A DNA stretch of 64,000 nt. Source: Bacteroidota bacterium. Lineage in GTDB: Bacteria > Bacteroidota > Bacteroidia > CAIKAF01. Of the stretch, positions 26,283-58,538 are shown in pieces. The notes beneath the pieces were generated by a model. It did not search any database. It had not been told where the DNA came from and worked only from the letters and a program-made list of their open reading frames with translations. The position numbers and the translations under genes were made by a program. Position 1 is the first letter of the stretch, and each line of letters begins with the position of its first letter. The DNA lies in NCBI GenBank assembly GCA_023432985.1, contig JAEZEQ010000062.1, forward strand, positions 69,907 to 133,906. Direction: 5' to 3'.

Positions 26283-26424
26283 TATATACGAACTATGTGA
26301 AAAAAAGTTAACCCATACTCGTTAATAATTTCTAAAACACTAACAATCAATGAGATTAATTTCATTAAATTTTCAATATTCATAATTAGCTTTCCGAACA
26401 AACCGGTATAATAATATGCGGCTT

Positions 26425-26472
26425 AAAAAAATAAAGGTAGAGTAATAGCTTTTTAAACTATCATCTACCTTT
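26425..26472 (-). terminator. terminator hairpin after giant adhesin-like gene 2 (minus strand)
   Basis: Arms aaaggtaga ... tctaccttt (26434-26442 and 26464-26472) are followed by a T-run on the minus strand (A-run 26425-26433). Confidence 0.55.
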
Positions 26473-26510
26473 AGATAAAGATTAGGTAATAAATACCCTA
26501 TAAATAAGAT

Positions 26511-29500
26511 TTAGCGAATCACATTAATATGACCTAATTTATCGAATACTTTTCCGCTTTTAGTTGAATAAATTAATTTATAGGAATAGGTATCTTGTTT
26601 CAACAAATTACCATTGGTTCCCAATCCATTCCAAACCAATTTGTCGAGTTGCCATCCTTTTACGTGGGCTACTTTTTCGCCCCAACGGCTAAATACCAAT
26701 AATTCGGCTTCTACGATATTGGTTCCGTAAATGGTAAATATTTCGTTGATATTATCCTCATTCATGGTGATTGTATTCGGCAAATAAATCACATGGTCAT
26801 CGTAAACATACACTCTTCCCGAGGTCGTATCTACACAACCATATTCATTTGTCACCAACAATCCCACATCATAATGCCCCACATAATCGTTCGGGTAAAT
26901 ATGGAAGGGGTTATTTTCATAAGACATGGTACCATCTCCAAATTGCCATACGCTGTTTGAATAGCCTGTGGATTCATTTAAAAACTGGAATGATGGTTCG
27001 ATAACTGAATTCGATTTCGGATTAGAGCTTAGCATAGCAACCGGATCCGGATATACTTCTATGGCATCTATTTGGGTAATAGAATCTTTACATCCAAAAT
27101 TAGATGTCACCAATAAAGAAATCGTGTATAAACCTGTTCCGTATGTAAAACTGGTATGCAGATCATTGCTGCTTCCCATTTCCAAATCCCAATAATTATC
27201 TACAATTTGTCCTTCCGGAATCGTAGATGTATTTGTAAACTGCGAGGTAAGGGGCGAACAACCATTTACCGGAGCAATGGTAAAGCTTGCCTCAGGATTT
27301 GCATAAACACGAATCGTTTTGGTAATACTATCTATACAGCCATAATTAGACACTGTAGTAAGCGTCACAGGAAACTGACCCCAATTCGGGAAAGTGACAT
27401 TGGGTGCAGGACTGTTTGAGACACCAAGTCCGGCCTGACTCATATCATAGCTATAGGAGTTAATACTACCTGTATCGATCGTACTTAAATTCTGAAAAGA
27501 AGATATAAATCCATGACAAACCGGATCTAATGCAAAATCAGAATTAGGGAATTCGTATACATATATATTCTTGGTAATGGTATCTCTACATCCAAAAGCA
27601 GTACCCACTGAAAGGGTAACAGGAATATAGCCTGCCGTATCATATATATATGATGTGTTTTGCGTGTTTACGGTAACGCCTGGTGCCAGTGTCCATTCCC
27701 AATCAGAAATAACATCATAGATGGCGCTACTTTGGTCAAACATATCAATTTCCTGGAAAGGACAAGCCGAGTCGAAGCTAAAATCCGCAACCGGTTTATC
27801 GTATGCTGTAACTACCTTAGAAACCGTATCGGCACAGCTACTGGAGTTGGTCACTATAAGTTCGACCGTATACTGCCCGTTTGCAGGGAAAAGGTGACTT
27901 GGATGTTGATCGGTAGAGGTGCTTCCATCTCCAAAATCCCAATGCCAATCTGTAATAGGTTGACCATAATCCTCGGAGCTGTCGGCATATTGAATCAATA
28001 CACCACAAGCATCAGGTAATGGAAAATCGGCTAAAGGTACTTTACCCACATCTATGGTATAACTGATGGTATCTTTACAACCATTATCAGAAGTTACTAT
28101 TAATTCTACCGGATATAATCCGTTTGTTGTATAAATATGTGCAGGATCTTCTTGGGTAGAGTTGTTTCCATCTCCAAAATCCCATTCCCAGGAAGCTAAA
28201 TTCTCATTTCCTACAAAACTAGAATCTGTAAATGAAGCCAGGGAACCTTCACAAATTATGGCTGTATAGTTATAGTCTGCTTTAGGTATATCGTGCAGTA
28301 CTATAGGCACAGTCATCGAATCGGAGCAATTGTTTTCATTGGTCACCAACAATTCCACATCATAAGTCCACACCCCACTGATATTGGGATCCGGGTATGT
28401 ATAATTTCCATTGAAAGTAGTATCTGTCGTATTATCTCCAAAACGCCATTCTACAGAAATAATAGAATCATTACCAATACTTGTATTAATAAAATCCCAT
28501 TCATTTCCACACACCTGAGGTGCAGTAAAAGAAGCCGTAGGCACATCTATCACTTCAATAGTTTTCATGATGGAGTCTTTACAACCATTATCGGAAGTTA
28601 CTACCAATTCAACATCATAAAATCCGCCTGTTGCATATACATGGGTTGGGAACTGACCCGTACCTGTATTTCCATCTCCAAAATCCCAATCCCACTGATC
28701 GTTTATACCAAATATTACGGTACTTGAATCCATGAAACTGGCATTATGACAAACCACTGTATCTGCGAAATCGGGTGTTATAACAGTTTGATTCAATTCG
28801 GCTACCAACTGTGCATTACAGCCGGATACTGAAATAAGCGTACATGTAAGCATTTGACCCGGAGTTGGGTTCAATACCGAGGTTGTAGGTCCAACTGTAC
28901 CATCCGACCAAATATAGCTTGCAAAACCCGGAGGAGCAGTTAGTACAGCCGTATTGCTACCAAAACAGTAGGACACGGACAATTTCATGGGTCTACATTC
29001 TGCCACTACATAAGCATAACCATAGTGTGCACCTAAATCGCAATCCCCAGTACGCAACTCAATGGTAACGTTCTGACCGATAAAGGGCGAAAGGTCTACC
29101 CCTACACTTTCCCAGTTTTTATAACGAATGGAACCATTACTCTGGAAGCCGGGAATATTCTGACCTGCCGTAACGATATACTCAGTACAAGGTATAATAT
29201 TATTATACTGATCTCTTACCTGTAATTCAAAACGAGGTTGATCGGCAGGGGTATGACTCGGATCCTGAAGTACTACCGCATAATTGTAAAAAAACAATGC
29301 ATTACTGCTATCCGGTTGCACAAATATCTGATAAGATAATGACTCGGCTTGTCTGCTTGTACTCGAGTTCCCCAAACGCGCAGAAAAAGTATAGCCCGGA
29401 CAAACTACAGGCACCTGATTGGCCGTATTTGGATCCATTCCCGCCCCCGTCATTATAGTATGCCGGCCGTTTACTATACCTGTCGTAGGCAACGAAATCG

Positions 29501-29636
29501 GACAACAAGTACCCGTTTTCCCTACCCAGTTTGTAAAATTATTCATGGTAAAGTCGGAGTTCGGACAGGTACTCTGACCATAGCTCAACCCGCTCCATGA
29601 CATAATAAAACCTGCAATAAGTAAAAATTTCTTCAT
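26511..29636 (-). CDS. giant secreted protein paralog: same N-terminal domain, PKD-like repeats, T9SS type B C-terminal domain
   Basis: 1041 aa with a signal peptide (MKKFLLIAGFIMSWSGLSYGQ). The N-terminal ~280 aa (QSTCPNSDFTMNNFTNWVGKTGTCCP...YAYVVAECRPMKL) is collinear with gene 1 and conserves all of its cysteines. WDFGDGN-type PKD-like repeats follow. The C-terminus HVIYLPNTITMNEDNINEIFTIYGTNI...DTYSYKLIYST is a type B CTD. Confidence 0.8.
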   Translation of the reverse strand: MKKFLLIAGFIMSWSGLSYGQSTCPNSDFTMNNFTNWVGKTGTCCPISLPTTGIVNGRHTIMTGAGMDPNTANQVPVVCPGYTFSARLGNSSTSRQAESLSYQIFVQPDSSNALFFYNYAVVLQDPSHTPADQPRFELQVRDQYNNIIPCTEYIVTAGQNIPGFQSNGSIRYKNWESVGVDLSPFIGQNVTIELRTGDCDLGAHYGYAYVVAECRPMKLSVSYCFGSNTAVLTAPPGFASYIWSDGTVGPTTSVLNPTPGQMLTCTLISVSGCNAQLVAELNQTVITPDFADTVVCHNASFMDSSTVIFGINDQWDWDFGDGNTGTGQFPTHVYATGGFYDVELVVTSDNGCKDSIMKTIEVIDVPTASFTAPQVCGNEWDFINTSIGNDSIISVEWRFGDNTTDTTFNGNYTYPDPNISGVWTYDVELLVTNENNCSDSMTVPIVLHDIPKADYNYTAIICEGSLASFTDSSFVGNENLASWEWDFGDGNNSTQEDPAHIYTTNGLYPVELIVTSDNGCKDTISYTIDVGKVPLADFPLPDACGVLIQYADSSEDYGQPITDWHWDFGDGSTSTDQHPSHLFPANGQYTVELIVTNSSSCADTVSKVVTAYDKPVADFSFDSACPFQEIDMFDQSSAIYDVISDWEWTLAPGVTVNTQNTSYIYDTAGYIPVTLSVGTAFGCRDTITKNIYVYEFPNSDFALDPVCHGFISSFQNLSTIDTGSINSYSYDMSQAGLGVSNSPAPNVTFPNWGQFPVTLTTVSNYGCIDSITKTIRVYANPEASFTIAPVNGCSPLTSQFTNTSTIPEGQIVDNYWDLEMGSSNDLHTSFTYGTGLYTISLLVTSNFGCKDSITQIDAIEVYPDPVAMLSSNPKSNSVIEPSFQFLNESTGYSNSVWQFGDGTMSYENNPFHIYPNDYVGHYDVGLLVTNEYGCVDTTSGRVYVYDDHVIYLPNTITMNEDNINEIFTIYGTNIVEAELLVFSRWGEKVAHVKGWQLDKLVWNGLGTNGNLLKQDTYSYKLIYSTKSGKVFDKLGHINVIR

Positions 29637-31510: not shown

Positions 31511-32326
31511 TTATGGGAAAAGAGGATATTTCCCGAAATCGGGATCTCTTTTTTCGAGAAAGGCTTTTTTTCCTTCTTGTGCTTCTTCCATTAAATAATA
31601 CATCAATGTGGCATCACCGGCAAATTCCATTATTCCGGTTTGTCCGTCCAATTCGGCGTTGAGTCCCCTCTTTATCATACGTAGAGCCAAAGGCGATCTT
31701 TTCATAATGGTTTTACACCATTCTACGGTTGTATTTTCCAGTTCTTCCAAAGAAACTACTTTATTCACCATTCCCATTTCTTCTGCTTCTTTAGCTGTAT
31801 ACTGATTGCATAAAAACCAAATTTCCCTTGCTTTTTTCTGACCTACATGGCGGGCCAAATAAGAAGATCCAAATCCGGCATCAAAACTGCCAACCTTAGG
31901 TCCGGTTTGCCCGAAGCGCGCATTCTCGGAAGCTATGGTCAAATCGCAAACGACGTGAAGTACATGTCCTCCACCTATGGCATATCCATTCACCATGGCT
32001 ATAACCGGCTTGGGAAGTGAGCGTATTTTCTTGTGTAAATCCAATACATTCAAACGAGGCACACCATCTTCTCCTACATATCCGCCCACGCCTTTCACGT
32101 TTTGATCTCCACCGCTGCAGAATGCTTTATCGCCGGCACCGGTAAGCACCACCACACGAATATCCTGTCTTTCGCGGCAAATATCAAATGCTTCCAACAT
32201 CTGAATATTTGTCTCGGGTCTAAAGGCATTATATACCTGAGGACGGTTTATGGTAACTTTTGCTATTCCTTCAAAAAATTCGAATCGTATATCGCTATAC
32301 TCTTTAATTGTTTGCCAATTTCTCAT
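31511..32326 (-). CDS. menB: 1,4-dihydroxy-2-naphthoyl-CoA synthase
   Basis: 271 aa, crotonase fold. [24 protein letters not shown]...[17 protein letters not shown] matches MenB. Confidence 0.9.
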
Positions 32327-32327
32327 T

Positions 32328-33974
32328 TTATTTTTTGTGTATTAATTCTATCCATTGTTTATATGCCAAACCATTATTTTCGGCATCGGTAAATATTTCG
32401 AGAATGGAGGCCGCTTTGTTATTCCAAAAATCGGATAAACGGGCTGTGAGTTCTTCTCCGTTTCGGGCACAAAAATAATCCATTTTACTTCGAATTGCAA
32501 CGGCCTCGGTATGTGTATAACAAGGCGTTTCGAAATGAGGCATCCATTCTTTTTTTTTGTTTGGCCCTTCAATCAGCCGAAAAATTCCGCCCCCATTATT
32601 ATTGAATACAACCACTTTGAAACCGGGTTTTACATACCCATTCCAAAAAGCATTTACATCGTAATGAAAAGCCAAATCACCGCATACATACAATACCTGA
32701 TCTTCTGTAGCTTGCGAAAATCCAACGGCCGTACTTCCCGATCCGTCAATGCCGCTCACTCCCCTGTTCACCCATATTTGGCAATCGTGAGGAATAAAAG
32801 ATTCGAGAAATTGCACATAACGAATGGCCATACTATTGGCTACATGCACCTGCATTTTGCGGGGAACACTTCTCAATAATTTGGCATAGGCCCAAACATC
32901 CGAAAAAGGAAGTGTGGGTATTTCCCGATCGAATCTATGTTGCAAGGCTTGACCAAGCTCCTGCCAACGCAGTTGAAAATCGGATTCTTCGGGCACTAAA
33001 TTTTCCAGAAGTCTGTGCACAAAGTCTATATCCGCCTCGCAATATACTCCCTTAAACTTGCCGTAGGTATTTATCTCACGCCCCTGTATATCGACGTGGT
33101 AATGTGCTATATCCTTAGATTTTTGTATGGTATTTTTCCATATTTTAGACACTATACCCTTTCCAAAACTAAATAGGATATCGGGAATATATCTAGAATC
33201 GCCGTCGGCATGACGCACATATTCATTCAAATTGCGCAGACTGTTTTCTTTGGGCAAATTGGAAATAGCTTCGCCTACTACAACAAGTTGCGGATAGGCC
33301 TTGCAGGCAGATATTATGGCTTCCCACCTTTCATCCTCCTTGGTTTGTCCGACCAGCAGCATTATCCGCTTCCCTTTCAAATCGGGCAATGGACGCATTT
33401 CGCCCTTGGTCTTTTCGGGAAAAGTAAAAGTAGAAAGAATATGGGGATTAAGTTCGTCGAGTGCGTAAAGAGGTTCGTCGAACTGAAAATTGACATGAAC
33501 GGGACCAAAAGGGAGTTTCGTTAAGGCCGTTTTAATTTCCGATAAGGCATGTATCACTTCCTTTTCATTGGCAAAATCGGCATTCAGGTTTACGCTGTGT
33601 CGAATATAATTTTTATATACCTCGTGTTGATTGATGGCTTGTCCATCTTGGTGGCCGATTTTATAGGCAGGCCTATCGGCTGTGAGAGCCAGCAAAGGCA
33701 CATCAGAATAAAAAGCTTCTGCCAGTGCTGGGGCATAATTGAGTACGGCCGAACCACTGGTACAAATCATAGCCACCGCTTCTCCTGAAGCCAAAGACAA
33801 ACCCAGGGCAAAAAATGCGGCACTGCGTTCGTCTATAATTTGATAACATTCCATACCGGGATGCTCTGTAAACGCAATAGTCAGAGGCGCACAGCGACTA
33901 CCGGGAGAGAGTACGATTTTACGTACTCCTGCCTGAAACAAATATGCCGCTATTTCACGTATACCTTTTTTCAT
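32328..33974 (-). CDS. menD: 2-succinyl-5-enolpyruvyl-6-hydroxy-3-cyclohexene-1-carboxylate synthase
   Basis: 548 aa TPP enzyme. The N-terminus [19 protein letters not shown]...LLALTADRP matches MenD. It is 1 nt from menB. Confidence 0.9.
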
Positions 33975-35006
33975 TTAGTACAAAAATGCCGATAATATTT
34001 TGCATTTATTCTCTGTCTCCACCCATTCTTTATTGGGGTCACTTCCTTGGGTAATTCCGGCTCCGGCGAAATACAAAATCCCATTATCATAAATTCGCGC
34101 CGTTCTTAATTGAACAAAAGTTTGCAAATTCTGTCCCTCGCCTATGCCCAAGAAACCGGCATACATTTCCCGTTTAAAGCTTTCCTTTTCCTCAATAAAC
34201 TGCAAGGATATTTCTTTTGGCAATCCGCCTACAGCCGGCGTAGGATGCAATTCTGCTGCCAATTTCTCTATAGAAAGTTCCTCCGGTAAATCGGCATAAA
34301 AAACTGTTTTCAAATGTTGAATACTTTGTAAATTCAAGCTCACCGGTCCTTCTGCACGTATATTTGATAATCCGAAATTTTTCCAAACCTCATTTATATA
34401 AGTGCTGACTAAGGCCTGCTCATCCAATTCCTTTGCACCCCATTCTTGCTCACTTTCATTCATTTTACGGGTACCGGCAAGAGACATAGACTCTATTCTA
34501 TTCCCATTTTTTTGCAAGAACAATTCGGGTGTTGCCGTAATCCAGCATCCGGTACGTGCACTATAATACATGCAAATAAAAGAATTCGGATAGGCTTCTG
34601 CCAAACGACAAAAAACCTGATTCCAATTCAGATTCTGTTTATATACTTCGAACAAAGTACGCGCTGCCACAACCTTCCGAAAGCCTTGCAATGCAATCTG
34701 ATTTCGAGCTTCCTCCACAAAAGAAATAAAGTTCTCTTTTGTTTGACGGGAATCTGTATAATTTCCTAATTTTGAAACAATAGGCCATTCCCCAACTTCC
34801 GTAATCCTATATTTTTTTTCTTCCAAAATAGGAAAATATAAAAACTGTGGATCTTTCCAAAAATCGAATGCTTGTGCGGTAAAATACTTAACTGAAGGCA
34901 TATGAGGGCTTGGCATTCCTAATTCAGCCACATAATAATGCGTATCTCCGGGTAGTTTATACCGGCAAAAAGCACCTTCTTCATTATGGGAATTCCCGTT
35001 TTGCAT
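33975..35006 (-). CDS. menF: isochorismate synthase (menaquinone-specific)
   Basis: 343 aa chorismate-binding fold with C-terminal GFLGIGEGQNLQTFVQLRTARI...YFAGAGI. The start abuts menD. Confidence 0.8.
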   Translation of the reverse strand: MQNGNSHNEEGAFCRYKLPGDTHYYVAELGMPSPHMPSVKYFTAQAFDFWKDPQFLYFPILEEKKYRITEVGEWPIVSKLGNYTDSRQTKENFISFVEEARNQIALQGFRKVVAARTLFEVYKQNLNWNQVFCRLAEAYPNSFICMYYSARTGCWITATPELFLQKNGNRIESMSLAGTRKMNESEQEWGAKELDEQALVSTYINEVWKNFGLSNIRAEGPVSLNLQSIQHLKTVFYADLPEELSIEKLAAELHPTPAVGGLPKEISLQFIEEKESFKREMYAGFLGIGEGQNLQTFVQLRTARIYDNGILYFAGAGITQGSDPNKEWVETENKCKILSAFLY

Positions 35007-37627: not shown

Positions 37628-39175
37628 CTAGACCAAATTTAAAATTTCATCCACATATTTACGGTCATTACTAAGGCGGGGCACTTTATGCTGCCCTCCC
37701 AGTTTACCTTTAGAGGCGAGCCATTTATGGAAAGTTCCTGTTTTTAATGATCTAACAATGGGGAATCGCAGGGTAAGATTTCCAACTCTTTTGGCATCAT
37801 AGTCCGAATTCAATTCCTTGAGTGTAGAATCTAAAACAGTTGCAAAAAGCTGTAAGTCAACAGGTTCATTTTCGAATTCAATGAGCCATTCATGCGCTCC
37901 TGTTCCCGACTCCGACATAAATACAGGAGCTGCGGTATAATCGACAATAGTAGCACCGCTTGCGCGACAAGCTTCATAAATAGCCTTCTCGCTATTTTCA
38001 ATCATCAGTTCCTCACCAAATGCATTGATAAAATGCTTGGTTCTTCCGGTTATTTCTATTCGGAACGGATATAAAGAGGTGAATTTCACTGTATCACCGA
38101 TCATATAGCGCCAGAGGCCGGAATTGGTCGAAATCAACATGGCATAATTAACGCCGGGTTTCACATCGAAAAGAGATATAGCGGCAGAAGGATTATCGAG
38201 TTGATCCATGGGAATAAACTCGTAAAAAATACCGTAATTCAACATGAGCAACATATCGCTGCGACCAAACTCATCCTGTATGGCAAAAAATCCTTCCGAG
38301 GCATTATAGGTTTCCAAATAAAAGAAATCATCGCGGGGAATAAGTTCGCGAAATTGCGCTTTATAAGGATCAAACTTCACGGCACCATGGGCAAACAATT
38401 CCAAATTGGGCCATATATCTAAAATAGAATCTGCTTTTTTGTATTCAATCAGCCTTTTCATCAATACCAACATCCAGGATGGAACGCCGGATATATTGGT
38501 AACATTAACTTCACTAAGTGCTTCCACCATTTTATCGAGCTTCACATTCCAATCGTCCATCAAGGCTATACTGCGTTTGGGCGTTCTATAATAATCGGCG
38601 ATCGGAGATAAATTACTCAGCAAAACTGCCGACAAATCGCCCACTTTCGAATAGGCATTGAGGTGATGCACACTTTTACTTCCACCGAGAATCATACTTT
38701 TACCGGTAAACAGTTTGGTTTGAGGCCGCTGCTGCGCATAAATGGCGAGCACGTCTTTTCCGGCTTTAAAATGATTGTCTTGCATTGCTTGCTTACTCAC
38801 AGGAATAAGCTTACTTCTGTCTTCGGCCGAACCACTGGTTTTAGCAAACCACTTCACCTCTCCCGGCCATAAAATATTCGATTTACCCAAAATCATTTGC
38901 TCAATATATCCTTTGAGCGAATCGTAATTTTGTATGGGTACATAACGGCGAAATTGCTCGTAGCTGCGAATTGAGGAAAAGCCGTATTCTCTTCCAAAAC
39001 GAGTGAACACCCCGGAGGCTATAAGCTCCCGGAAAACTCTATCCTGCATATTTTCCGGCTCTTTGTAATGGGCCTGAATAGCAGGAATACAGGTTTTTAA
39101 ATATTGTTTAATTATGGAATTCAACATACCTATTGTGGAGCAAGGTACAATATTTTTTTTTTCAAAAAAAGGCAT
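37628..39175 (-). CDS. GH3 auxin-responsive promoter family (acyl-adenylate-forming) protein
   Basis: 515 aa showing the pattern typical of bacterial GH3 homologs (..FAKTSGS..., ..YNASEGFFAIQD..). The start is ambiguous: the ATG at 39175 or the internal ATG at 39130 (MLNSII..). Confidence 0.7.
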   Translation of the reverse strand: MPFFEKKNIVPCSTIGMLNSIIKQYLKTCIPAIQAHYKEPENMQDRVFRELIASGVFTRFGREYGFSSIRSYEQFRRYVPIQNYDSLKGYIEQMILGKSNILWPGEVKWFAKTSGSAEDRSKLIPVSKQAMQDNHFKAGKDVLAIYAQQRPQTKLFTGKSMILGGSKSVHHLNAYSKVGDLSAVLLSNLSPIADYYRTPKRSIALMDDWNVKLDKMVEALSEVNVTNISGVPSWMLVLMKRLIEYKKADSILDIWPNLELFAHGAVKFDPYKAQFRELIPRDDFFYLETYNASEGFFAIQDEFGRSDMLLMLNYGIFYEFIPMDQLDNPSAAISLFDVKPGVNYAMLISTNSGLWRYMIGDTVKFTSLYPFRIEITGRTKHFINAFGEELMIENSEKAIYEACRASGATIVDYTAAPVFMSESGTGAHEWLIEFENEPVDLQLFATVLDSTLKELNSDYDAKRVGNLTLRFPIVRSLKTGTFHKWLASKGKLGGQHKVPRLSNDRKYVDEILNLV

Positions 39176-39196
39176 CCATAATCGGATGCCTTTTTT
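39171..39196 (-). terminator. rho-independent terminator after sppA (minus strand) overlapping the annotated GH3 start codon
   Basis: Stem ggcatcc / ggatgcc with loop ataatc (gauuau on the minus strand). On the minus strand the hairpin is followed by U7 GAAAAAAAA. The ATG at 39175 sits inside the second hairpin arm. Confidence 0.6.
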
Positions 39197-39216: not shown

Positions 39217-41013
39217 TTATTGAATAACCATATTATAAGGCATTCTGGCTTGTACGCCTTTTGTTTGCTCCAGACTTCTAAAGCCTTCAAGTATATAATA
39301 TCCTTCACCCAAATTTTTACGCATAACAGATTCTACTGTTTCCGATTTTCCTTCGTTCAGAAGAGATTGCCAAAAGTCTTTTTTCTCCGGAAAAGTAAGT
39401 ATTCCATAATCACTTAATCCGACTTTTGAAGCAGCAAAAGCAATGGCATCTTCCATAGATCCGATTTCATCTACGAGTTTCAATTCTTTCGCATCTCTAC
39501 CGGCCCATACTCTACCCTGCGCTATACTGTCTACCTCGGCTATAGTCATACCGCGACCATCGGCTACACGCTTCAAAAACAATTGATAAATATCATTTAC
39601 ACTGCGGTTTAAATAATTCTTTTCGGCATCTTCCATACCGCGGGCAAAAGAAAAGAAATCGCTGTAATTATTGGTTTTCACCGTATCGGTTGTAATACCC
39701 AGTTTGCCGTTTAAAAACTGTTCGGCATTATAAAGCATTCCAAATACTCCGATAGAACCCGTAAGCGTTTGTGCATCTGCAAAAATACGATCTGCTCCAC
39801 AAGCGATATAATATCCTCCCGAAGCGGCATAATTTCCCATGGAAACAATTACCGGTTTTTTCGCTTTGGTCAACTCTACCTCTCTCCACAATATCTCGGA
39901 TGCCAAGGCACTTCCACCGGGCGAATTCACGCGCAATACAACCGCTTTCACCGTCTCATCTTCACGCGCCTTTTTCAATTCTCTACCCAAATTCTGATCG
40001 CTGATGGTCTGCTCGTCACCCGGACCATAAACAATCTCGCCCTCGGCAAAAACAACGGCAATATGATCTTTTTTGCGGGCGGAAACCAGCTCATGTTTGT
40101 ACAAATCATAATATTCGCCCGGACTCACCAAACGCAATTTATCTTCGCTGCTGAATCCCGATTCTTTTTTAATCAGATCTATAAACTGATCACGATACAT
40201 CAAACTATCGGCCATGCCCAGAGATACAGCCTGCATGGTATTGTATACTTCCAGATTATCGGCCATGCGATTCAAATCGGCGATCTCAATCCCACGAGAA
40301 TCACTCCAATCGGCCAACATCTCATCCCAAATGGTTTGTAAAAACATAAAGGTCTGTGCCCGATTTTCCGGACTCATTTTCTCGACCAAAAAAGGTTCTA
40401 CGGCACTTTTGAACTTATTGCCTTCAGGTCGAAATACCTCCGCTTCTACACCCAATTTATCAAGCAAACCTTTAAAGGAAACAAAGGTCGAACTCAACCC
40501 TTTAAACTCTATATCTCCGGCCGGATTCATAAATATTTTATCGCCGGCACTGGCTAAATACAAGCTTTTCTGAGTCAATACATCCGAATAGGTATATACA
40601 AATTTTCCGGTCGAACGAAATTCTGCTAAGGCTGCTCTCAATTCCTCCGCTGTTGCCATACCCATGTTTACCGAGGAAATATCCAGGAATATTCCCGATA
40701 TTTTATCGTTTGTGGAGGCATGCTGAATGCTGCGCACCAGGTCGAATAATCCCGGTTTGGGATGCGTGCTGAACTTGCCGCTGCCTATTGATTCGAAAGG
40801 ATTCAGCGTCGATTTATCACCTAGATTATAGTTGAGCTTTAGATGCAAAACCGAACTTTCTGTAAGCGTTTTCACATTCGAGGAACTCTCGGCACTGCCT
40901 ACTATGGCACCAAGAAATATGAAAAAAACAAACATAAAAATTAAACCGGTTAACATAATGCCTATAACCGATCCTAAAGCCGATCCAAAAAAGGATTTCC
41001 AAAAATTACTCAT
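39217..41013 (-). CDS. sppA: signal peptide peptidase SppA (67K type)
   Basis: 598 aa with an N-terminal TM and two ClpP/crotonase-like halves. The catalytic-region motifs SPGGSALASE and GNYAASGGYYIA are present. Confidence 0.9.
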   Translation of the reverse strand: MSNFWKSFFGSALGSVIGIMLTGLIFMFVFFIFLGAIVGSAESSSNVKTLTESSVLHLKLNYNLGDKSTLNPFESIGSGKFSTHPKPGLFDLVRSIQHASTNDKISGIFLDISSVNMGMATAEELRAALAEFRSTGKFVYTYSDVLTQKSLYLASAGDKIFMNPAGDIEFKGLSSTFVSFKGLLDKLGVEAEVFRPEGNKFKSAVEPFLVEKMSPENRAQTFMFLQTIWDEMLADWSDSRGIEIADLNRMADNLEVYNTMQAVSLGMADSLMYRDQFIDLIKKESGFSSEDKLRLVSPGEYYDLYKHELVSARKKDHIAVVFAEGEIVYGPGDEQTISDQNLGRELKKAREDETVKAVVLRVNSPGGSALASEILWREVELTKAKKPVIVSMGNYAASGGYYIACGADRIFADAQTLTGSIGVFGMLYNAEQFLNGKLGITTDTVKTNNYSDFFSFARGMEDAEKNYLNRSVNDIYQLFLKRVADGRGMTIAEVDSIAQGRVWAGRDAKELKLVDEIGSMEDAIAFAASKVGLSDYGILTFPEKKDFWQSLLNEGKSETVESVMRKNLGEGYYILEGFRSLEQTKGVQARMPYNMVIQ

Positions 41014-41119: not shown

Positions 41120-41608
41120 TTAAGCATAGGTGCCCAAACGTTTCATCAATTCCTGACGCGCCAAATAAATACGACTCTTAACCGTGCCTATAGGCAAAGC
41201 CAATTCGTCCGAAATTTCTTTGTATTTATAACCGGCATAATACAGCTCGAACGGCTCACGTATTGACGAATCTAAACGCGCTATTTCTTGTTGAATCTCG
41301 GAATATTCTAAACCCGAATTCAACTCCTGAACCATGCCCGGAATTATGATATCGGACAAGGATTGCTTTTGCCAACGTTTTGATTTTCGATAATCATTGA
41401 TGAATACATTGCGCATTATGGTGTATAACCAGGCTTTTAAATTACTATGGGACGCAAAAGAATCCTTATATAATAAAGCCTTTACCATAGTCTCCTGAAA
41501 TAAATCATCGCCCGCAGCCCTGTTGCCCGTAAGGTTACGTGCAAAACTTCGCAAACTGTCGCTATAGGAAACTAAAATAGCATCGAAACTGTAATCGGAT
41601 GTATTCAT
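41120..41608 (-). CDS. RNA polymerase ECF-type sigma factor (sigma-70 family)
   Basis: 162 aa. Region 2 (DDLFQETMVKAL...AWLYTIMRNVFINDYRK) and region 4 (ISDELALPIGTVKSRIYLARQELMKRL) are recognisable. No adjacent anti-sigma gene is present. Confidence 0.85.
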   Translation of the reverse strand: MNTSDYSFDAILVSYSDSLRSFARNLTGNRAAGDDLFQETMVKALLYKDSFASHSNLKAWLYTIMRNVFINDYRKSKRWQKQSLSDIIIPGMVQELNSGLEYSEIQQEIARLDSSIREPFELYYAGYKYKEISDELALPIGTVKSRIYLARQELMKRLGTYA

Positions 41609-41847
41609 TTGTATTGGTATTTGTTGAACACAAAGATACTTTGTTTAACTTTTTCGATTAAACATTAAACAAGAAATATTATTAAAAAAATAAAATACAC
41701 TGCCAGTCAGGCTATTACAAAAAAAACAGGATAAAAATGTTTAACAAAAGAACAGGAGCTATTCGAATAGATTAAACAAGAAATGAAGGAGAGGGACTCT
41801 TGCTAAGTTTTTTTTAACAGTCGAAATGGGAATATTTGCGAAAATAA

Positions 41848-42828
41848 TTAAGAAATCTGATCGAGGCGCTGAATTAATTCGCTATAACTTTTCAGGTGAC
41901 TAATATGTTTTGCCAATTGCAAATCCGGATTATGCATGAGGGGGCCGGAGACCCATACTTCTATATTTGAAAATGGGTTTTCCTTAAATCGGTTCAGATA
42001 TTTTTGCAGCGAAAAGGTAGTAAATCCGGCTGTGAAATAGGTAAACAAATGAGTAGGATTATGGGTTTGCATAAATATTTCCAAATCATTAAAAGGCATA
42101 GATTGCCCAAGATAGATAACATGGAATCCTCTTTTAACTATGGCATATTTGGCAAATAATAATCCGATTTCATGCCATTCGTTTTCGGGCAAAAAAAGTA
42201 TGAATTTCTCCTGATTTATATGCTTGCCACGCGGCAATTTATCAATTTCGACTATGGTTCTTCTTCGGATAAGATTGGCCATAAAATGCTCTTGAGCCAC
42301 ATTCACTTCGCCCAAGGACCAGAGCATTCCAATTTTAGTCAGAAATGGAATAAGTATAAGCAGCATACTTTGTTCGAATCCAATTTTGCGAATGGCATCT
42401 TCCATGGTTTGGTCGAATTTATCCTCATCCAAATCGATCATGGCAATCAACAATGCTTCTATATTCCAGCTGTAAAAAAAATCCGGATCATTATTTTCTT
42501 CGCCAAGTTTATTAATGGCTTCGGCTATTTCGGAAGAATGCATGGCAGCCACTTTCGAAATCTTATATCCATTCTTTAGTAATAGGGCAATATTCAGGAT
42601 TTGTTTTAATTGCGCGTCATCGTAGAAGCGTATTTGGGTGGACGTGCGATGCGGCACTATAATGCCATACCTCTGCTCCCATATGCGCAGGGTATGTGCT
42701 TTTATTTGTGATAATTTTTCTACTTCTCGTATGGAATAAGACACTTTACAGGCTAGTTTACTATACGAAACAAATATACAAGCAAATTGTTCGCAAAAAA
42801 ACAAAAAAAGTACGACCTGCTTTTGCAA
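41848..42828 (-). CDS. CarH/LitR-like MerR-family regulator with C-terminal adenosylcobalamin-binding domain (putative light sensor)
   Basis: A MerR HTH (YSIREVEKLSQIKAHTLRIWEQRYGIIVP...RFYDDAQLKQIL) is followed by a helical bundle carrying W-x9-E-H (WSLGEVNVAQEH), which matches the W131/E141/H142 AdoCbl-contacting triad spacing of CarH. A Rossmann-like domain with E-x-H-x-x-G (ENEWHEIG) lies 38 residues downstream. Confidence 0.6.
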   Translation of the reverse strand: MQKQVVLFLFFCEQFACIFVSYSKLACKVSYSIREVEKLSQIKAHTLRIWEQRYGIIVPHRTSTQIRFYDDAQLKQILNIALLLKNGYKISKVAAMHSSEIAEAINKLGEENNDPDFFYSWNIEALLIAMIDLDEDKFDQTMEDAIRKIGFEQSMLLILIPFLTKIGMLWSLGEVNVAQEHFMANLIRRRTIVEIDKLPRGKHINQEKFILFLPENEWHEIGLLFAKYAIVKRGFHVIYLGQSMPFNDLEIFMQTHNPTHLFTYFTAGFTTFSLQKYLNRFKENPFSNIEVWVSGPLMHNPDLQLAKHISHLKSYSELIQRLDQIS

Positions 42829-42861
42829 ATCGTACTTAAAATAATCTATTAAAACGGGATT

Positions 42862-44160
42862 TTACTTCAATCCAAACTGCTTTTTAACAGCTGCTACATA
42901 GTCGAGTTTTTCCCAAGTAAACAATTCTACTTTTACTTTCTTTTCTATTTTTTTCAATCCTTCCTGACGTATAAATGTTTTGGTAACCGTCTCGGATTCT
43001 TTCCCGAAATGCCCATATGCCGCAGTTTCGCTATACATTGGATTACGCAGTTTCAAACGGGTTTCTATTCCATAAGGTGTCATATCGAAAATCTTTGCAA
43101 TTTTAGCTGCAATTTCACCATCGCTCAATTTCACTTTCGAAGTTCCTTCTGTATCGATAAAAATATTCATTGGTTCTTTAACCCCAATGGCGTAAGAAAC
43201 TTGCACCAATACACGATCGCATAAACCGGCGGCTACCAGATTTTTGGCAATATGGCGTGTTGCATATGCGGCCGAACGGTCTACTTTTGAAGGGTCTTTT
43301 CCGCTAAAAGCTCCACCCCCATGCGCACCACGTCCACCGTATGTATCAACGATAATCTTACGTCCGGTCAGGCCCGTATCGCCATGCGGTCCACCGATCA
43401 CAAATTTACCGGTTGGATTTATATGGTATTTGATTTTATCATTGAACAAATGTTTGTACTTGGCATATTTCTTTTTCACACGGGGAATAAGAATTTCGAC
43501 CATGTCTTTATGAATCTTAGCCAACATTTCTTTTTCAGCTTTCACGATGTCCGCAGCTTTTCCCGATTTGGGGGCAATAAAATCATCGTGTTGGGTGCTG
43601 ATTACTATGGTATCAATGCGAACAGGTCTGTGCTTATCGTCGTACTCGAGGGTAACCTGCGCTTTTGCATCGGGACGTAAATAACTGATTGATTTCATTT
43701 CACGTCGCAATGCTGCAAGTTCCATCAAAATTCTATGCGATAAATCCAATGCCAATGGCATATAATTTTCGGTTTCATTGGTAGCATAACCAAACATCAT
43801 ACCTTGATCGCCGGCACCTTGATCTTCTTTTTTCTTTTTGTCAACACCCCGATTAATATCGGCACTTTGTTCGTGTATAGCCGATAATATACCACAAGAA
43901 TTGGCCTCGAACATATACTCGCTTTTGGTATATCCGATTTTACGAATAACCGCACGGGTGATTTCCTGTACATCGAGATAAGCAGATGATTTAACCTCCC
44001 CGGCTAATACAACCTGACCGGTAGTTACCAAGGTTTCACATGCTACTTTCGACTCAGGATCCCAAGCTAAAAAGTTATCAATTAATGCATCGGATATTTG
44101 GTCGGCAACCTTGTCCGGATGCCCCTCTGAAACAGATTCTGACGTAAATAAATATGACAT
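42862..44160 (-). CDS. metK: S-adenosylmethionine synthetase
   Basis: 432 aa reading [25 protein letters not shown]..., with [19 protein letters not shown] and collinearity throughout. Confidence 0.95.
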
Positions 44161-45827: not shown

Positions 45828-45911
45828 GATTTGTCCACCTTTTTTTTCATTTTCTTAAACAAAAGTCGAACTATTTTGTTTCTGTAGGTATAAAACTAAA
45901 AATACAGATTC

Positions 45912-48287
45912 ATGTTTCGTATATTCCTTCTTTTGGCTTTGTTCTCAGCTACCCTTTCTCACGCACAAAACGGGTATATAAAAGGACAAATTAAAAATGC
46001 GATAACCAATGAGCCCGTACTTTTTGCCAATATAGTGGCCGAAGGTCAATCTAAAGGTAGTACCAGCGATACAGCCGGATTTTTCAGTATAGGTCCCCTC
46101 GAGCCGGGCTTTGTTACCCTCGCGATTTCTGCGCTGGGATATGAAACGTTTCGATACAGAGATATACAAGTCACCAATGCGGGTTCTGCCTATGTAGACA
46201 TCAAGCTTGAACCTGCCAATCAGTCGTTGAGCGAGGTTGTTATCAAAGCCAGTCCCTTCAATCAGACTTATGAAAGTCCCATTTCGAATCGCACCATTGG
46301 TCTGGCCGAAATTGAAAGAAATCCGGGCGGAAACAGGGATATAAGTAATGTATTAAAAAGCTTTCCGGGTGTGGCTTCTACGCCGGCTTTTCGGAATGAT
46401 ATCATCATACGCGGCGGTTCTCCTTCCGAAAATCGATTCTACCTGGATGGCGTGGAAGTACCCGTAATAAACCACTTTCAAACCCAGGGTGCATCGGGGG
46501 GACCAACAGGTATTATCAATGTAAACCTGATCCGAAATGTAGACTTTTTATCGGGCGCATTTCCTGCCGCCAGAGGAAATGCACTCAGTTCGGTTTTGGA
46601 ATTTAATCAGGTCGATGGCAATAGAGATAAATGGAAATATAGATTCGCACTGGGAAGCAGTGATGCCGCTTTTAAGGCCGATGGTCCGATTGGAAAAAAC
46701 AGCAGCTTTATCGGTTCGGCGCGGGTTTCTTATCTGCAATTCTTGTTCAAAGCGCTCAAGCTTCCCTTTTTACCGACCTATTACGACTATCAATTTAAAT
46801 ACAAATGGAATATTAATCCCAAAAATGAAATCAGCATCATTTCACTCGGCGCCATTGACCGCATGAAACTTAATCTCTCGGAAAATGAAACCGAAAAACA
46901 ACGCTATTTACTCAATACCATTCCGGTTAATAATCAGTGGAATTACACACTGGGATTGGTTTACAAAAGATATGCGAAAAACGGAACTCATAGTTTTGTA
47001 TTGAGCAGAAATATGTTCGACAACCGGGTTGTAAAATATAAAGACAACGACGAATCCAATCCCGACAACTTGAATACAGATTATCACAGTCAGGAAAGCG
47101 AAAATAAATTTCGATACGAATATTTATATAGAAAAGGAAGCTGGAAAATCGTGAGCGGTGCAGGTGTTGAATATTCACGATATTATAATCGTTCCTATAT
47201 AAAATTTGCCACTCCCGCCGGCCCCGATACGCTTAATGCCATTTCGACCTTACATTTATGGCAAGGCTCTGTATTCACACAGGCGAGTCGCACTTTCTTT
47301 AAAGAAAGATGGGTTCTTTCATTGGGATTGCGTTTCGACAACAACAATTTCAATGCGCATATGGCCAATCCTCTCAATCAATTCTCACCCCGCCTATCCA
47401 GCTCGGTGCGCATAACGGAATGGATGAGCTTTAATGCACATGTGGGTCGCTATTTCCAAAGACCTTCTTATACCCTTATGGGCTATAGAAATAATCAGGA
47501 CGAATTGGCAAATAAATCGCTAAAATATATACGTGCCGACCATTTCATTGCCGGATTCGATTTCACTCCAACTTCTACTACCAAAATCACCTTAGAAGGT
47601 TTTTATAAAGCCTATGCACAATATCCATTCTCTTTACGAGACAGCATATCGCTGGCCAATCAGGGAGCGGGATTTAGCGTCGTGGGTAATGAGCCCGCCG
47701 ATAGCAGAGGAAAAGGAAGGGCATATGGATTGGAATTTATGATTCAACAAAAAATATGGAAAGGCTTTTATGGCATTTTATCCTATACCTATGTAGTGAG
47801 CGAATTTCAGGATAAAAACAATGCTTTTATTCCGTCCAACTGGGACAACAGACATTTGTTGACCTTGACTTCGGGTTATAAATTTAAACGCAATTGGGAA
47901 GTGGGCCTGCGTTGGAGATATGTAGGCGGAGCACCTTTTACGCCTATCGATACCAATTTGTCGCTTCAAACAACCGTTTATGATATTTACCAAAGAGGTA
48001 TTAGTGATAATGATAAAATCAATGCCGAACGCGGACGCGCTTTCCACCAACTCGACCTACGCGTAGATAAAAGCTGGTTCTTCAAAAAATGGAGTTTGAA
48101 TATTTACGTGGATGTGCAAAATGTGTATAATTTCAAATACAAAGCACAAGATTATTTGACCATTGAAAGGGATGCAAACGGAGCAGCTGTTAAAGATCCG
48201 TCGAATCCTCAAATGTATAAATCAAAATTCATAGAAAACCTTACGGGAACGGTATTGCCTTCTATAGGTGTTATCGTAGATTTCTAA
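45912..48287 (+). CDS. TonB-dependent receptor with N-terminal carboxypeptidase-regulatory-like (CarboxypepD_reg) domain
   Basis: 791 aa with a signal peptide, then GYIKGQIKNAITNEPVLFANIVAEG...DTAGFFSI (CarboxypepD_reg), a plug domain (..IRGGSPSENRFYLDGVEV..) and a long beta-barrel ending in a C-terminal aromatic residue. Confidence 0.85.
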   Translation: MFRIFLLLALFSATLSHAQNGYIKGQIKNAITNEPVLFANIVAEGQSKGSTSDTAGFFSIGPLEPGFVTLAISALGYETFRYRDIQVTNAGSAYVDIKLEPANQSLSEVVIKASPFNQTYESPISNRTIGLAEIERNPGGNRDISNVLKSFPGVASTPAFRNDIIIRGGSPSENRFYLDGVEVPVINHFQTQGASGGPTGIINVNLIRNVDFLSGAFPAARGNALSSVLEFNQVDGNRDKWKYRFALGSSDAAFKADGPIGKNSSFIGSARVSYLQFLFKALKLPFLPTYYDYQFKYKWNINPKNEISIISLGAIDRMKLNLSENETEKQRYLLNTIPVNNQWNYTLGLVYKRYAKNGTHSFVLSRNMFDNRVVKYKDNDESNPDNLNTDYHSQESENKFRYEYLYRKGSWKIVSGAGVEYSRYYNRSYIKFATPAGPDTLNAISTLHLWQGSVFTQASRTFFKERWVLSLGLRFDNNNFNAHMANPLNQFSPRLSSSVRITEWMSFNAHVGRYFQRPSYTLMGYRNNQDELANKSLKYIRADHFIAGFDFTPTSTTKITLEGFYKAYAQYPFSLRDSISLANQGAGFSVVGNEPADSRGKGRAYGLEFMIQQKIWKGFYGILSYTYVVSEFQDKNNAFIPSNWDNRHLLTLTSGYKFKRNWEVGLRWRYVGGAPFTPIDTNLSLQTTVYDIYQRGISDNDKINAERGRAFHQLDLRVDKSWFFKKWSLNIYVDVQNVYNFKYKAQDYLTIERDANGAAVKDPSNPQMYKSKFIENLTGTVLPSIGVIVDF

Positions 48288-58502: not shown

Positions 58503-58538
58503 AAAGCGACATACAAAAAATGTCGCTTTTTTATTTTT
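58503..58538. terminator. bidirectional terminator between catalase and the convergent MerR-family gene
   Basis: A perfect 10-bp stem aaagcgacat / atgtcgcttt with loop acaaaaa has T-runs on both sides. Confidence 0.75.

Follow-up and report, generated by a model that had tools for sequence, protein, structure and literature searches.

A probable CarH/LitR-type photoreceptor gene and a predicted operator upstream of a stand-alone ECF sigma factor gene in Bacteroidota

A regulator gene and the sigma factor gene behind it were analysed within a 64-kb stretch of Bacteroidota DNA (the window). The locus features named in an earlier note on this DNA were all present and lay on the minus strand. The two genes, their spacer and the terminator of the neighbouring metK gene were mapped as follows:

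41120..41608, minus strand: stand-alone ECF sigma factor, 162 aa, with sigma2 and sigma4 regions only (PF04542, PF08281)
41609..41847, unstranded: regulator-sigma spacer, 239 bp, 73% A+T, holding the sigma promoter and the predicted operators
41848..42744, minus strand: CDS of the CarH/LitR-family regulator, 298 aa, GTG start at 42744, stop codon included
42808..42837, minus strand: metK intrinsic terminator, a 13-bp stem with 5 GC pairs, then TTTTTGTTTT

The regulator ORF had been listed as 42828..41848 (minus strand, 326 aa, TTG start), and this extent was rejected as over-extended. The metK terminator falls within the first 28 codons of the longer ORF, the homologues are about 298 aa long and start at the equivalent of V29 in the homologue alignment, and 298 aa is also the length called for this gene on the scaffold of the source metagenome; the start was therefore reassigned to the GTG at 42744. 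Of the original description as a 326-aa MerR-family protein, the family stood (PF13411) and the length became 298 aa. Downstream of the sigma gene lie sppA (41013..39217) and a GH3 gene (39175..37628), both on the minus strand.

The sigma protein scored 75 bits against TIGR02937 (cut-off 42.9) and had the sigma2/sigma4-only composition of ECF (group 4) factors; NCBIfam assigned it only to the general ECF superfamily. No plausible anti-sigma ORF was found in the spacer or 3' of the sigma gene, where the frames were of 30 aa at most, and the earlier description of an ECF sigma factor immediately downstream of the regulator and lacking a cognate anti-sigma gene was thereby confirmed. Because there is no anti-sigma gene, sigma activity would be set by transcription of the sigma gene. 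Comparison with other genomes gave 80 loci, 47 with an adjacent sigma gene and 33 without; 11 of the 33 end less than 1.1 kb after the regulator, which left 69 assessable. A sigma orthologue (37-47% identity) thus lay directly downstream of the regulator, on the same strand and without an anti-sigma gene, in 47 of the 69 assessable genomes. The regulator-sigma spacer measured 52-780 bp in all loci except two.

The regulator protein was divided into the following parts:

42541..42738, minus strand: MerR-type winged helix-turn-helix DNA-binding domain, residues 3-68; PF13411 (MerR_1), E=8.6e-15
42262..42459, minus strand: four-helix-bundle subdomain, residues 96-161; PF02607 (B12-binding_2), E=4.3e-11
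42319-42321 (W codon) and 42286-42291 (E-H codons), minus strand: W142-x9-E152-H153, within the four-helix bundle
42163..42180, minus strand: E189-W-H191-E-I-G194, an E-x-H-x-x-G motif that includes the lower axial His (codon at 42172-42174)
41851..42213, minus strand: Rossmann-like cobalamin-binding subdomain, residues ~178-298, five strands alternating with helices (AF2 model, pLDDT ~90)

The best solved relative of the regulator was the CarH/LitR protein of Thermus thermophilus (TtCarH), matched at E=1e-17 when the sequence was searched alone and at 4e-25 with the profile of its family. The DNA-binding domain aligned to that of TtCarH, and its signature K15-A-H-T-x-R-I-W-E-x-R ... R33-T ... 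I38-R-x-Y41 was invariant across the regulator family. The two stretches first picked out by eye, WSLGEVNVAQEH and ENEWHEIG, were both found in the regulator translation. The former had been read as a W-x9-E-H triad spaced as in CarH, and its W142, E152 and H153 aligned to W131, E141 and H142 of TtCarH; the latter, read as the E-x-H-x-x-G lower-ligand motif of cobalamin proteins, aligned to 'GERHEIG' (His177). Among 39 Bacteroidota homologues, W142, E152, H153, E189, H191 and E192 were invariant, so that the ligand His, whose absence from orthologues had been raised as a point against the reading, was present throughout. Most homologues had Gly at position 194 and the rest had Ser, Ala or Pro; where TtCarH has His132, members of the regulator family carry Ser, Gln, Thr, Arg, Ala or Met.

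Domain searches supported part of the cobalamin-binding region. The MerR_1 and B12-binding_2 (PF02607) matches exceeded the Pfam thresholds; PF02310, the other model proposed for checking the protein, remained sub-threshold (E=0.13; 12.6 bits, cut-off 32.1), and for some homologues of the regulator a PF02310 match is on record. The second half of the classical B12 motif (x41-S-x-V/T-x22-27-G-G) was altered: the family has T235-Y-F there, and of the two Gly only G267 is invariant, the next residue being Pro, Tyr or others. Because PF02310 was sub-threshold, the Rossmann domain was judged by structure prediction and fold search. The AlphaFold (AF2) model had a pLDDT of 88.9 and a pTM of 0.80, and its top Foldseek matches were full-length CarH (5c8d, 5c8e and 5c8f), with a target-normalised TM of ~0.8 and an rmsd of ~3 A for the cobalamin-binding domain. 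The Rossmann-like C-terminal domain proposed at the outset was thus recovered by fold and not by PF02310. Taken together, the Pfam domains, the TtCarH match, the invariant residues and the fold bore out the reading of the protein as a CarH/LitR-like AdoB12 regulator. Against the NCBIfam equivalog NF052513 'CarH' it scored 100.3 bits, below the cut-off of 400; judged by its sequence, it is a family relative but no equivalog of that seed set. Certain sources already call homologues 'light-induced transcriptional regulator'.

It was considered very unlikely that the regulator is a CarA-like or class II/III LitR-like protein without the AdoCbl chromophore, or a sensor of B12 availability and not of light. 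The degenerate Rossmann half of the B12 motif and the PF02310 score would suit such a protein, as would the contents of the 64-kb window, in which a search for riboswitches and other RNAs returned one tRNA only, with no cobalamin riboswitch, and no B12 genes were visible. However, W-x9-E-H and E-x-H-x-x-G, which are said to define true CarH homologues and are absent from CarA (PMC8156234), are invariant in this family; moreover, the model fold matches AdoCbl-bound CarH, and relatives of the regulator are located inside carotenoid clusters.

The spacer had been described as 240 bp at 41609-41847; these coordinates were correct and the length was 239 bp. At least five copies of TTAAACA/TGTTTAA in both orientations had been reported there, and five were mapped, at 41642 (-), 41658 (+), 41665 (+), 41738 (-) and 41772 (+). 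A segment given as a 13-mer duplicated at 41666 and 41772 was indeed duplicated, as the 14-mer ATTAAACAAGAAAT at 41664 and 41771. The elements of the spacer were assigned as follows:

41642..41671, unstranded: predicted proximal operator; TGTTTAA-N16-TTAAACA, a perfect palindrome that begins 63 nt before the sigma ATG
41658..41664, unstranded: extra half-site within the operator spacer, tandem TTAAACATTAAACA on the plus strand
41631..41638, minus strand: Bacteroidetes-type -7 box TAtcTTTG (TAnnTTTG), 3 nt past the operator, with 22 nt left to the sigma ATG
41622..41628, unstranded: degenerate half-site reading TTCAACA on the gene strand, located past the -7 box and ahead of the ATG
41738..41778, unstranded: distal half-site pair TGTTTAA-N27-TTAAACA (gene strand), a possible auxiliary operator (27 = 16 + 11)

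The TAnnTTTG consensus belongs to established knowledge of Bacteroides promoters. The copy at 41658..41664 provides a gene-strand TTTA 20 nt upstream of the -7 box, and TTCAACA recurs as a right half-site variant at other loci. The proximal site was the sole perfect palindrome in 64 kb; a PWM trained exclusively on other genomes gave it 32.2 bits, at the median of the training sites. Two palindrome matches with two mismatches (4878 and 26954) were at chance level and were discarded. The distal pair may serve as an auxiliary operator, a weaker assignment because its N27 spacing is non-canonical.

In AT-rich intergenic DNA such heptamers might be chance repeats: 73% of the spacer is A+T, and no enrichment was seen over the whole window (17 TTAAACA copies observed vs 20 expected). 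However, 5 of the 17 copies fell in the 239-bp spacer, a number reached in none of 200,000 simulations at the spacer composition (maximum 4), and 44 of 49 diverged genomes had the palindrome in the corresponding position. The probability left to chance is practically negligible, and this explanation is regarded as already refuted.

The candidate operators were sharpened by this comparison from TTAAACA repeats to a phylum-wide palindrome with 16-bp spacing. The conserved form, TTTTGTTTAA-N16-TTAAACAAA, includes the TTAAACA copies and occurred upstream of the sigma gene in those 44 of 49 loci. In the 49 spacers the left and right halves were separated by N16 in 62 cases and by N17 in a further 14, against about 0.3 expected. 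The palindrome was often present in two copies 44 bp apart, with a second, upstream site at most loci. In 32 of the 44 loci TAnnTTTG overlapped or adjoined the proximal palindrome; the expectation was 0.04 per 80 bp. Of 25 sites beyond the regulator-sigma spacer, 24 were intergenic, and such sites lay upstream of the regulator itself, crtZ and crtI. In characterised CarH operators, TnnACA repeats overlap the -35/-10 elements (PMC9304148); TnnACA is present in the half-site T-TAAACA, and the palindrome overlaps TAnnTTTG or TTTG boxes. The in silico prediction of a regulator-binding site in the sigma promoter is thus supported.

That the palindrome is read by another factor, either the ECF sigma itself (autoregulated through AAC and GTT elements) or some other transcription factor, was rated as quite improbable. 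The motif does track the sigma gene, as 15 loci with more than 4 kb after the regulator and no adjacent sigma gene had no site, and a right half followed at N14 by a left half could pass for an ECF promoter of the form AAC-N16-GTT. However, the L-N16-R arrangement was far more conserved than R-N14-L (12 cases), and many loci, the window included, carry a single palindrome without an R-to-L pair. The two-fold symmetry of the site suggests a dimeric factor, the half-site has the CarH TnnACA core, and the site overlaps a -7 box of the primary-sigma type. Sites were also found before the regulator gene in three loci without an adjacent sigma gene (L039, L041 and L072).

On this evidence from sequence and modelling, the 298-aa protein is probably a class I (AdoCbl-dependent) CarH/LitR photoreceptor-repressor that gates the sigma promoter, with repression in the dark and release in the light. 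For the regulator, we infer AdoCbl binding, a response to light, an oligomeric state and DNA binding. In the dark, the AdoCbl-bound regulator would oligomerise and place its DNA-binding domains on half-sites spaced about 24 bp, further half-sites lying close by, and occupancy of the half-sites would block RNA polymerase at the sigma promoter. Under UV, blue or green light the Co-C bond would be photolysed, the oligomer would leave the DNA, and the sigma gene would be transcribed. The sigma factor would then steer RNA polymerase to a light-protection regulon, which in Cytophagales and Flavobacteriales would include the crtI, crtB and cyclase genes right behind it.

With the same protein and operator, the regulator could instead be a MerR-style light-dependent activator of the sigma promoter, or repressor and activator in one, which we think unlikely. 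MerR-family proteins classically bind between promoter elements, and in many loci one half-site lay between the -33 and -7 elements. In the Streptomyces model, light-converted LitR is proposed to activate the litS promoter (PMC11519972), so pure repression by the present regulator is not guaranteed. Against activation, the sites span the -7 box and start region or, in some loci, abut the ATG, a better fit to occlusion than to spacer remodelling, and the structurally characterised AdoCbl-CarH proteins all lose DNA binding in light (PMC8156234, PMC9304148).

The sigma gene is followed by crtI and crtB in Cytophagales and Flavobacteriales, directly in about 28 loci, and in Algoriphagus the order is cruF-crtZ-regulator-sigma-crtI-crtB-cyclase-lytB. 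No crt genes were found within the 64-kb window, and the module is detached from crt genes in the present lineage. The statement that the regulon is not the textbook one was borne out only in part: relatives carry the textbook carotenoid layout. At the class (b) loci the neighbours were unrelated housekeeping genes (peptidase M16, O-methyltransferase, AlaRS, PurM, FolE and Idi), their identities assigned by reading translations. The sppA and GH3 genes were not supported as regulon members; the order sigma-sppA-GH3 occurred only in the closest relatives, and with a TAtaTTTG box upstream sppA appears to have its own promoter. A search for sigma targets in the window identified none, and no sigma-dependent promoter motif could be defined from the loci compared. 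The element CTAACAA-N13-AAGTTAGGAATCC, found upstream of Algoriphagus cruF, was set aside as a sigma promoter because it was conserved at genus level only and its one loose match in the window (41885-41909, in the 3' end of the regulator gene) was at chance expectation.

A second site in the window was recorded together with the gene behind it:

45832..45861, unstranded: TGTCCAC-N16-TTAAACA, a second and weaker candidate operator whose end is 50 bp before the following gene
45912..48287, plus strand: TonB-dependent-receptor-like gene, 791 aa, with CarboxypepD_reg and Plug domains

By PWM score this site ranked second in the window, with 18.0 bits (training minimum 12.9); the maximum in 10 random windows was 12.1 bits. 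As a second operator it is suggestive only, and the TonB-dependent-receptor-like gene is a possible member of the regulon. A full-length orthologue of its product (45% identical) is encoded immediately after the Algoriphagus crt cluster; a search for operators of their own at the Algoriphagus orthologues found none.

Comparison with known systems showed that the closest in sequence and fold was T. thermophilus CarH/LitR (PDB 5C8D, 5C8E, 5C8F and 3WHP), which shares the MerR winged helix, the W-x9-E-H bundle and the E-x-H-x-x-G Rossmann domain; in both systems a half-site with TnnACA overlaps promoter elements. The two proteins have only ~22% identity, the His132 that forms the bis-His light state of TtCarH is not conserved in the present family, and the regulator departs from the second half of the B12 motif. 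The TtCarH operator consists of three tandem 11-bp direct repeats, whereas an inverted repeat with N16, often in two copies 44 bp apart, was found here. TtCarH targets the crt and regulator promoters, whereas the predicted target here is the sigma factor gene.

Streptomyces LitR-LitS has the same two-tier logic, with a B12 photoreceptor gene beside an ECF sigma gene and no anti-sigma. The resemblance, drawn before any comparison of genomes, was strengthened by the syntenic pair and by the many relatives with crtI-crtB right after sigma: LitS, under LitR control, drives crt promoters, and the sigma factor is linked to carotenoid genes in relatives of the present locus. Streptomyces belongs to a different phylum, no crt genes are adjacent in the present organism, and litR and litS are divergent with bidirectional promoters (PMC11519972), whereas the genes here are in tandem.

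The CarH and CarA proteins of Myxococcus xanthus are likewise B12-type MerR repressors of light-induced carotenogenesis, with an ECF sigma factor in the same response. CarQ, however, is under the anti-sigma CarR and singlet oxygen and not under CarH, which represses the crt operon directly at a primary-sigma promoter; here the regulator is predicted to control the sigma factor. The M. xanthus operator contains inverted repeats (PMC9304148). Bacillus megaterium CarH, a tetrameric repressor that depends on AdoCbl, has operators overlapping -35 or -10 elements (PMC9304148); it differs in having four tandem 11-bp direct repeats in place of the inverted repeat and no sigma-factor tier. The type of switch is thus already known, and the present locus is a well-supported further example, with the pair and the operator conserved across Bacteroidota.

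A further reading goes beyond this and is tentative, being possible but on balance doubtful. It holds that a B12 photoreceptor-ECF sigma module has been freed from carotenoid genes, here and in many Bacteroidales/Lentimicrobium-type genomes, to serve another light regulon, and that the regulator sits on DNA in a geometry new for CarH. The regulon may then include the TonB-dependent-receptor-like gene here and DUF4397-like/T9SS and fasciclin proteins elsewhere, and the regulator would bind as a two-fold symmetric dimer to half-sites spaced ~24 bp, the units recurring in phase at 44-bp intervals.

Among the known ways in which non-phototrophic bacteria sense light at the level of transcription, B12-based photoreceptors are the chief one, and they are used as optogenetic parts. 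No experimental description of a Bacteroidota CarH-ECF module was found in the searchable literature, and a Chryseobacterium lacus paper offers mere speculation on a LitR-like regulator. The locus and the comparative data indicate that Bacteroidota make wide use of a CarH-type sensor gating a stand-alone ECF sigma factor. They also give a precise, testable operator and promoter architecture in a phylum whose promoters are unlike the E. coli type. The practical value lies in predictions ready for use, namely EMSA targets and a light switch that works with Bacteroidetes promoters. No concept is overturned, and a handle is provided on light control in lineages that carry the module away from pigment genes.

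The regulator locus contained the following features:

44160..42862, minus strand, metK
42837..42808, strong intrinsic terminator of metK, within the first 28 codons of the 326-aa ORF
42828..41848, minus strand, MerR-type regulator, ORF as first called
42744..41848, minus strand, regulator CDS as adopted (GTG start, 298 aa)
between the regulator and sigma genes, spacer of 239 bp
41608..41120, minus strand, ECF sigma factor (162 aa)
41013..39217, minus strand, sppA
39175..37628, minus strand, GH3-family gene

The length of 326 aa given in the earlier note was over-extended. The 326-aa start was dropped and the GTG at 42744 adopted because the metK terminator lies inside the extension, homologues are about 298 aa long and begin at the position of V29, and the metagenome scaffold with the exact locus (ENA LEMO22-1_SAMN17215515_METAG-scaffold_98) also carries a 298-aa gene call. 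The sigma gene was confirmed to lack a cognate anti-sigma gene, since neither the spacer nor the stretch from sigma to sppA holds a plausible ORF for one. Between sppA and the GH3 gene (39165-39196) lies a bidirectional terminator, a hairpin whose perfect 13-bp stem has an A-run on one side and a T-run on the other; since it overlaps the annotated GH3 start (39175), the start codon or operon structure of GH3 may differ from the ORF call.

Pfam analysis of the regulator revealed MerR_1 (residues 3-68) above threshold. The B12-binding domain expected in the earlier note was found with B12-binding_2/PF02607 (residues 96-161, above threshold), PF02310 staying below its threshold (E=0.13, 12.6 bits against a cut-off of 32.1). 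The best match among solved structures was Thermus thermophilus CarH/LitR (TtCarH), which gave E=1e-17 with the single sequence as query and 4e-25 with a 39-homologue profile. Both peptide motifs noted before, WSLGEVNVAQEH and ENEWHEIG, were present; W142-x9-E152-H153 aligned onto W131/E141/H142 of TtCarH, and E189-x-H191 onto its His177 motif. Across 39 aligned homologues from Bacteroidota, which share 41-52% identity with the regulator, W142, E152, H153, E189, H191 and E192 were invariant. The AlphaFold model (pLDDT 88.9, pTM 0.80) showed a winged helix, a helical bundle and a five-stranded alpha/beta domain; its top Foldseek matches were the full-length CarH structures 5C8F, 5C8E and 5C8D, and the cobalamin-binding domain superposed on CarH with a TM(target) of about 0.8. 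The family differed from TtCarH in that the position of His132 was unconserved and the distal half of the classical B12 motif was altered (T235-Y-F, one invariant G267). The family comprised 5,419 database proteins at E<=1e-5, some of them labelled 'light-induced transcriptional regulator' by JGI.

By sequence and predicted fold, the regulator was shown to be a CarH/LitR family member, as first proposed. It probably belongs to class I, agreeing in all tested sequence and fold features save two: the distal B12 motif is degenerate and ambiguous, and the NCBIfam CarH equivalog score (100 bits) falls below the 400-bit cut-off. A protein with both motifs is a CarH homologue by definition, and CarA is independent of B12 because it lacks them (PMC8156234); it is very improbable that the regulator is a B12-independent (CarA-like, class II/III LitR-like) relative or a sensor of B12 availability.

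Regulator loci from other Bacteroidota (L001 and similar handles) were scanned with one genome per species, and the best 80 of more than 598 loci were taken. A sigma orthologue (37-47% identity to the window sigma) lay directly downstream on the same strand in 47 of these; because the sequence of 11 of the remaining 33 loci ends less than 1.1 kb past the regulator, the pair was present in 47 of 69 assessable loci. In about 28 loci of Cytophagales and Flavobacteriales among the best 80, crtI and/or crtB came right after sigma. The order in Algoriphagus was TspO, DUF4286, cruF, crtZ, regulator, sigma, crtI, crtB, lycopene cyclase, lytB and desaturase, with crtI starting 5 bp past sigma. In a second class (Bacteroidales, Lentimicrobiaceae, the window and its closest relatives L081/L082) the pair had variable neighbours, which look like housekeeping genes from their translations. 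The order metK-regulator-sigma-sppA-GH3 was kept in the closest relatives, whose regulators are 52% identical. As judged from gene order, the regulator and stand-alone ECF sigma were shown to form a conserved module, which bears out the LitR-LitS-like pairing. In several loci without crt, the genes just past sigma (L016 7047-7595 and 7975-8670, L017, L077 7787-8200) read by eye as IPP isomerase, GTP cyclohydrolase I (FolE) or 6-pyruvoyl-tetrahydropterin synthase, which hints at isoprenoid or pterin ties of the module.

The operator analysis, with a weight matrix (PWM) from the sites of other genomes, identified these window features:

41642-41671, perfect palindrome TGTTTAA-N16-TTAAACA, the sole perfect site in 64 kb
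41638..41631, -7 box TAtcTTTG, 3 nt past the palindrome and 22 nt before the sigma ATG
45832-45861, second-best PWM site in the window, 18.0 bits
45912-48287, plus strand, TonB-dependent-receptor-like gene (CarboxypepD_reg + Plug), 3 kb from the regulator

The reported TTAAACA/TGTTTAA copies were located at 41642(-), 41658(+), 41665(+), 41738(-) and 41772(+). The spacer held 5 of the 17 window copies, the heptamer being unenriched across 64 kb, and five copies in 239 bp occurred zero times in 200,000 simulations with the spacer's own mono- or dinucleotide composition. The duplication described as a 13-mer was real, its length being 14 nt (ATTAAACAAGAAAT at 41664 and 41771). Alignment of 130 bp upstream of sigma showed the same element nearly everywhere. 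When up to one mismatch was allowed in each half-site, the 49 non-redundant spacers held TGTTTAA-N16-TTAAACA 62 times and the N17 form a further 14 times, against an expectation of about 0.3 derived from the remainder of the loci; other spacings were close to background. At least one site was present in 44/49 loci, with the consensus TTTTGTTTAA-N16-TTAAACAAA, and many loci had two sites 44 bp apart (e.g. -87 and -43). The right-to-left order of half-sites peaked weakly at N14, as tandem units predict. Against a PWM from which it had been left out, the window site scored 32.2 bits, the same as the median of the training sites. The suggestion that the repeats are operators gained support, since the copies at 41642 and 41665 are half-sites of this conserved, putative operator; 41658 is an additional half-site within the palindrome spacer, and the pair at 41738 and 41772 has a non-canonical N27 spacing (16 + 11) and may be an auxiliary site.

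Outside the regulator-sigma spacer, 24/25 sites of at least 16 bits were intergenic, including sites 5' of the regulator gene (L018, L032, L039, L041, L052, L072), crtZ (L026) and crtI (L061). Recognition of the palindrome by the ECF sigma or another factor is improbable: sites precede the regulator in loci where no sigma adjoins, which argues for binding by the regulator. Strong copies also lay 5' of secreted proteins, read from their sequences as a DUF4397-like repeat protein with a T9SS tail (L039 6571-8988, L057 7854-9269) and triple fasciclin (FAS1)-like proteins (L044 4494-5846, L065 and L071 4474-5847). These genes could be light-regulated and so far unrecognised. Fasciclin proteins bind carotenoids in some algae.

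The primary-sigma -7 box of Bacteroidetes has the consensus TAnnTTTG. It overlapped or adjoined the proximal palindrome in 32/44 loci (0.04 expected per 80 bp), lying inside the palindrome spacer just 5' of the right half-site in 16 and fused with the left half-site in 9. In the window, TTTA lies within the operator, 20 nt upstream of TAtcTTTG. The conserved palindromic element was shown to cover the predicted sigma promoter, and the position of the -7 boxes suggests that the predicted operator encloses a housekeeping-type promoter of the sigma gene. This is the classical layout for repression by occlusion. Activation in the light, the role proposed for LitR of Streptomyces, is an unlikely alternative to repression. 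Under repression, AdoCbl-bound regulator oligomers would sit on the half-sites in the dark and block transcription; in the light, AdoCbl photolysis would release the regulator from DNA, and sigma, free of anti-sigma, would be produced and switch on a photoprotective regulon.

The half-site includes TnnACA, the core sequence of CarH operators mapped by experiment; these operators consist of 11-bp direct repeats in tandem in Thermus and Bacillus and are 'remarkably plastic' in Myxococcales (PMC9304148), whereas the Bacteroidota palindrome is inverted, with N16. In the Thermus complex, a head-to-tail CarH dimer touches DR1 and DR3, 22 bp apart (PMC9304148). The palindrome half-sites, separated by about 24 bp and related by two-fold symmetry, speculatively would suit such a dimer, and the 44-bp phasing might suit a tetramer or two dimers.

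No crt gene and no riboswitch was found in the 64-kb window, in agreement with the view that the downstream genes (sppA, GH3) are not carotenoid genes. sppA is probably not a specific target because it is preceded by its own TAtaTTTG box, its adjacency to sigma is restricted to close relatives, and a terminator follows it. The site at 45832-45861 (maximum of 12.1 bits in 10 random windows) ends 50 bp upstream of the TonB-dependent-receptor-like gene. In eight Algoriphagus loci (e.g. L084 14309-16711), a 45%-identical full-length orthologue of this gene comes right behind the crt cluster, and no operator of their own was found for these orthologues. Membership of the window gene in the regulon is suggestive, not established. 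Upstream regions of Algoriphagus cruF shared CTAACAA-N13-AAGTTAGGAATCC about 60-110 bp 5' of the gene (L001, L003, L004, L009, L010, L014, L019, L021), the surrounding sequence having diverged; it resembles an ECF-type promoter (AAC ... GTT) and could be the sigma's target motif, conserved at genus level only.

The window also codes for catalase, BshC, ClpB and CHU_C/T9SS proteins, consistent with an aerobic environmental Bacteroidota of metagenomic origin. Downstream of the catalase gene (57032-58495, plus strand) lies a convergent gene for a 138-aa MerR-family protein without a B12 domain (58531-58947, minus strand), a possible regulator of redox or stress responses. Two adjoining giant PKD-repeat proteins of 1,389 and 1,041 aa (22113-29636, minus strand) bear CHU_C type IX secretion signal domains. 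BshC (bacillithiol biosynthesis; 12095-13693, minus strand) and menF-, menD- and menB-like menaquinone genes (31511-35006) indicate an aerobic, bacillithiol-using Bacteroidota.

No published description of the Bacteroidota regulator-sigma module was found in the literature searched, and the ECF reclassification paper mentions MerR-like regulators in passing only. In structure and motifs the nearest known system is TtCarH/LitR; in circuit logic it is Streptomyces LitR-LitS. The litR-litS genes are divergent, whereas the Bacteroidota genes are tandem, their operator is an inverted repeat, and the window lineage has no adjacent crt genes. By analogy, the module is predicted to work like LitR-LitS. 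A tentative and rather doubtful reading is that the module governs a light regulon detached from carotenoid genes and that the regulator binds DNA in a geometry new for CarH. The module would represent a further instance, in Bacteroidota, of the known B12-photoreceptor/ECF sigma switch type.
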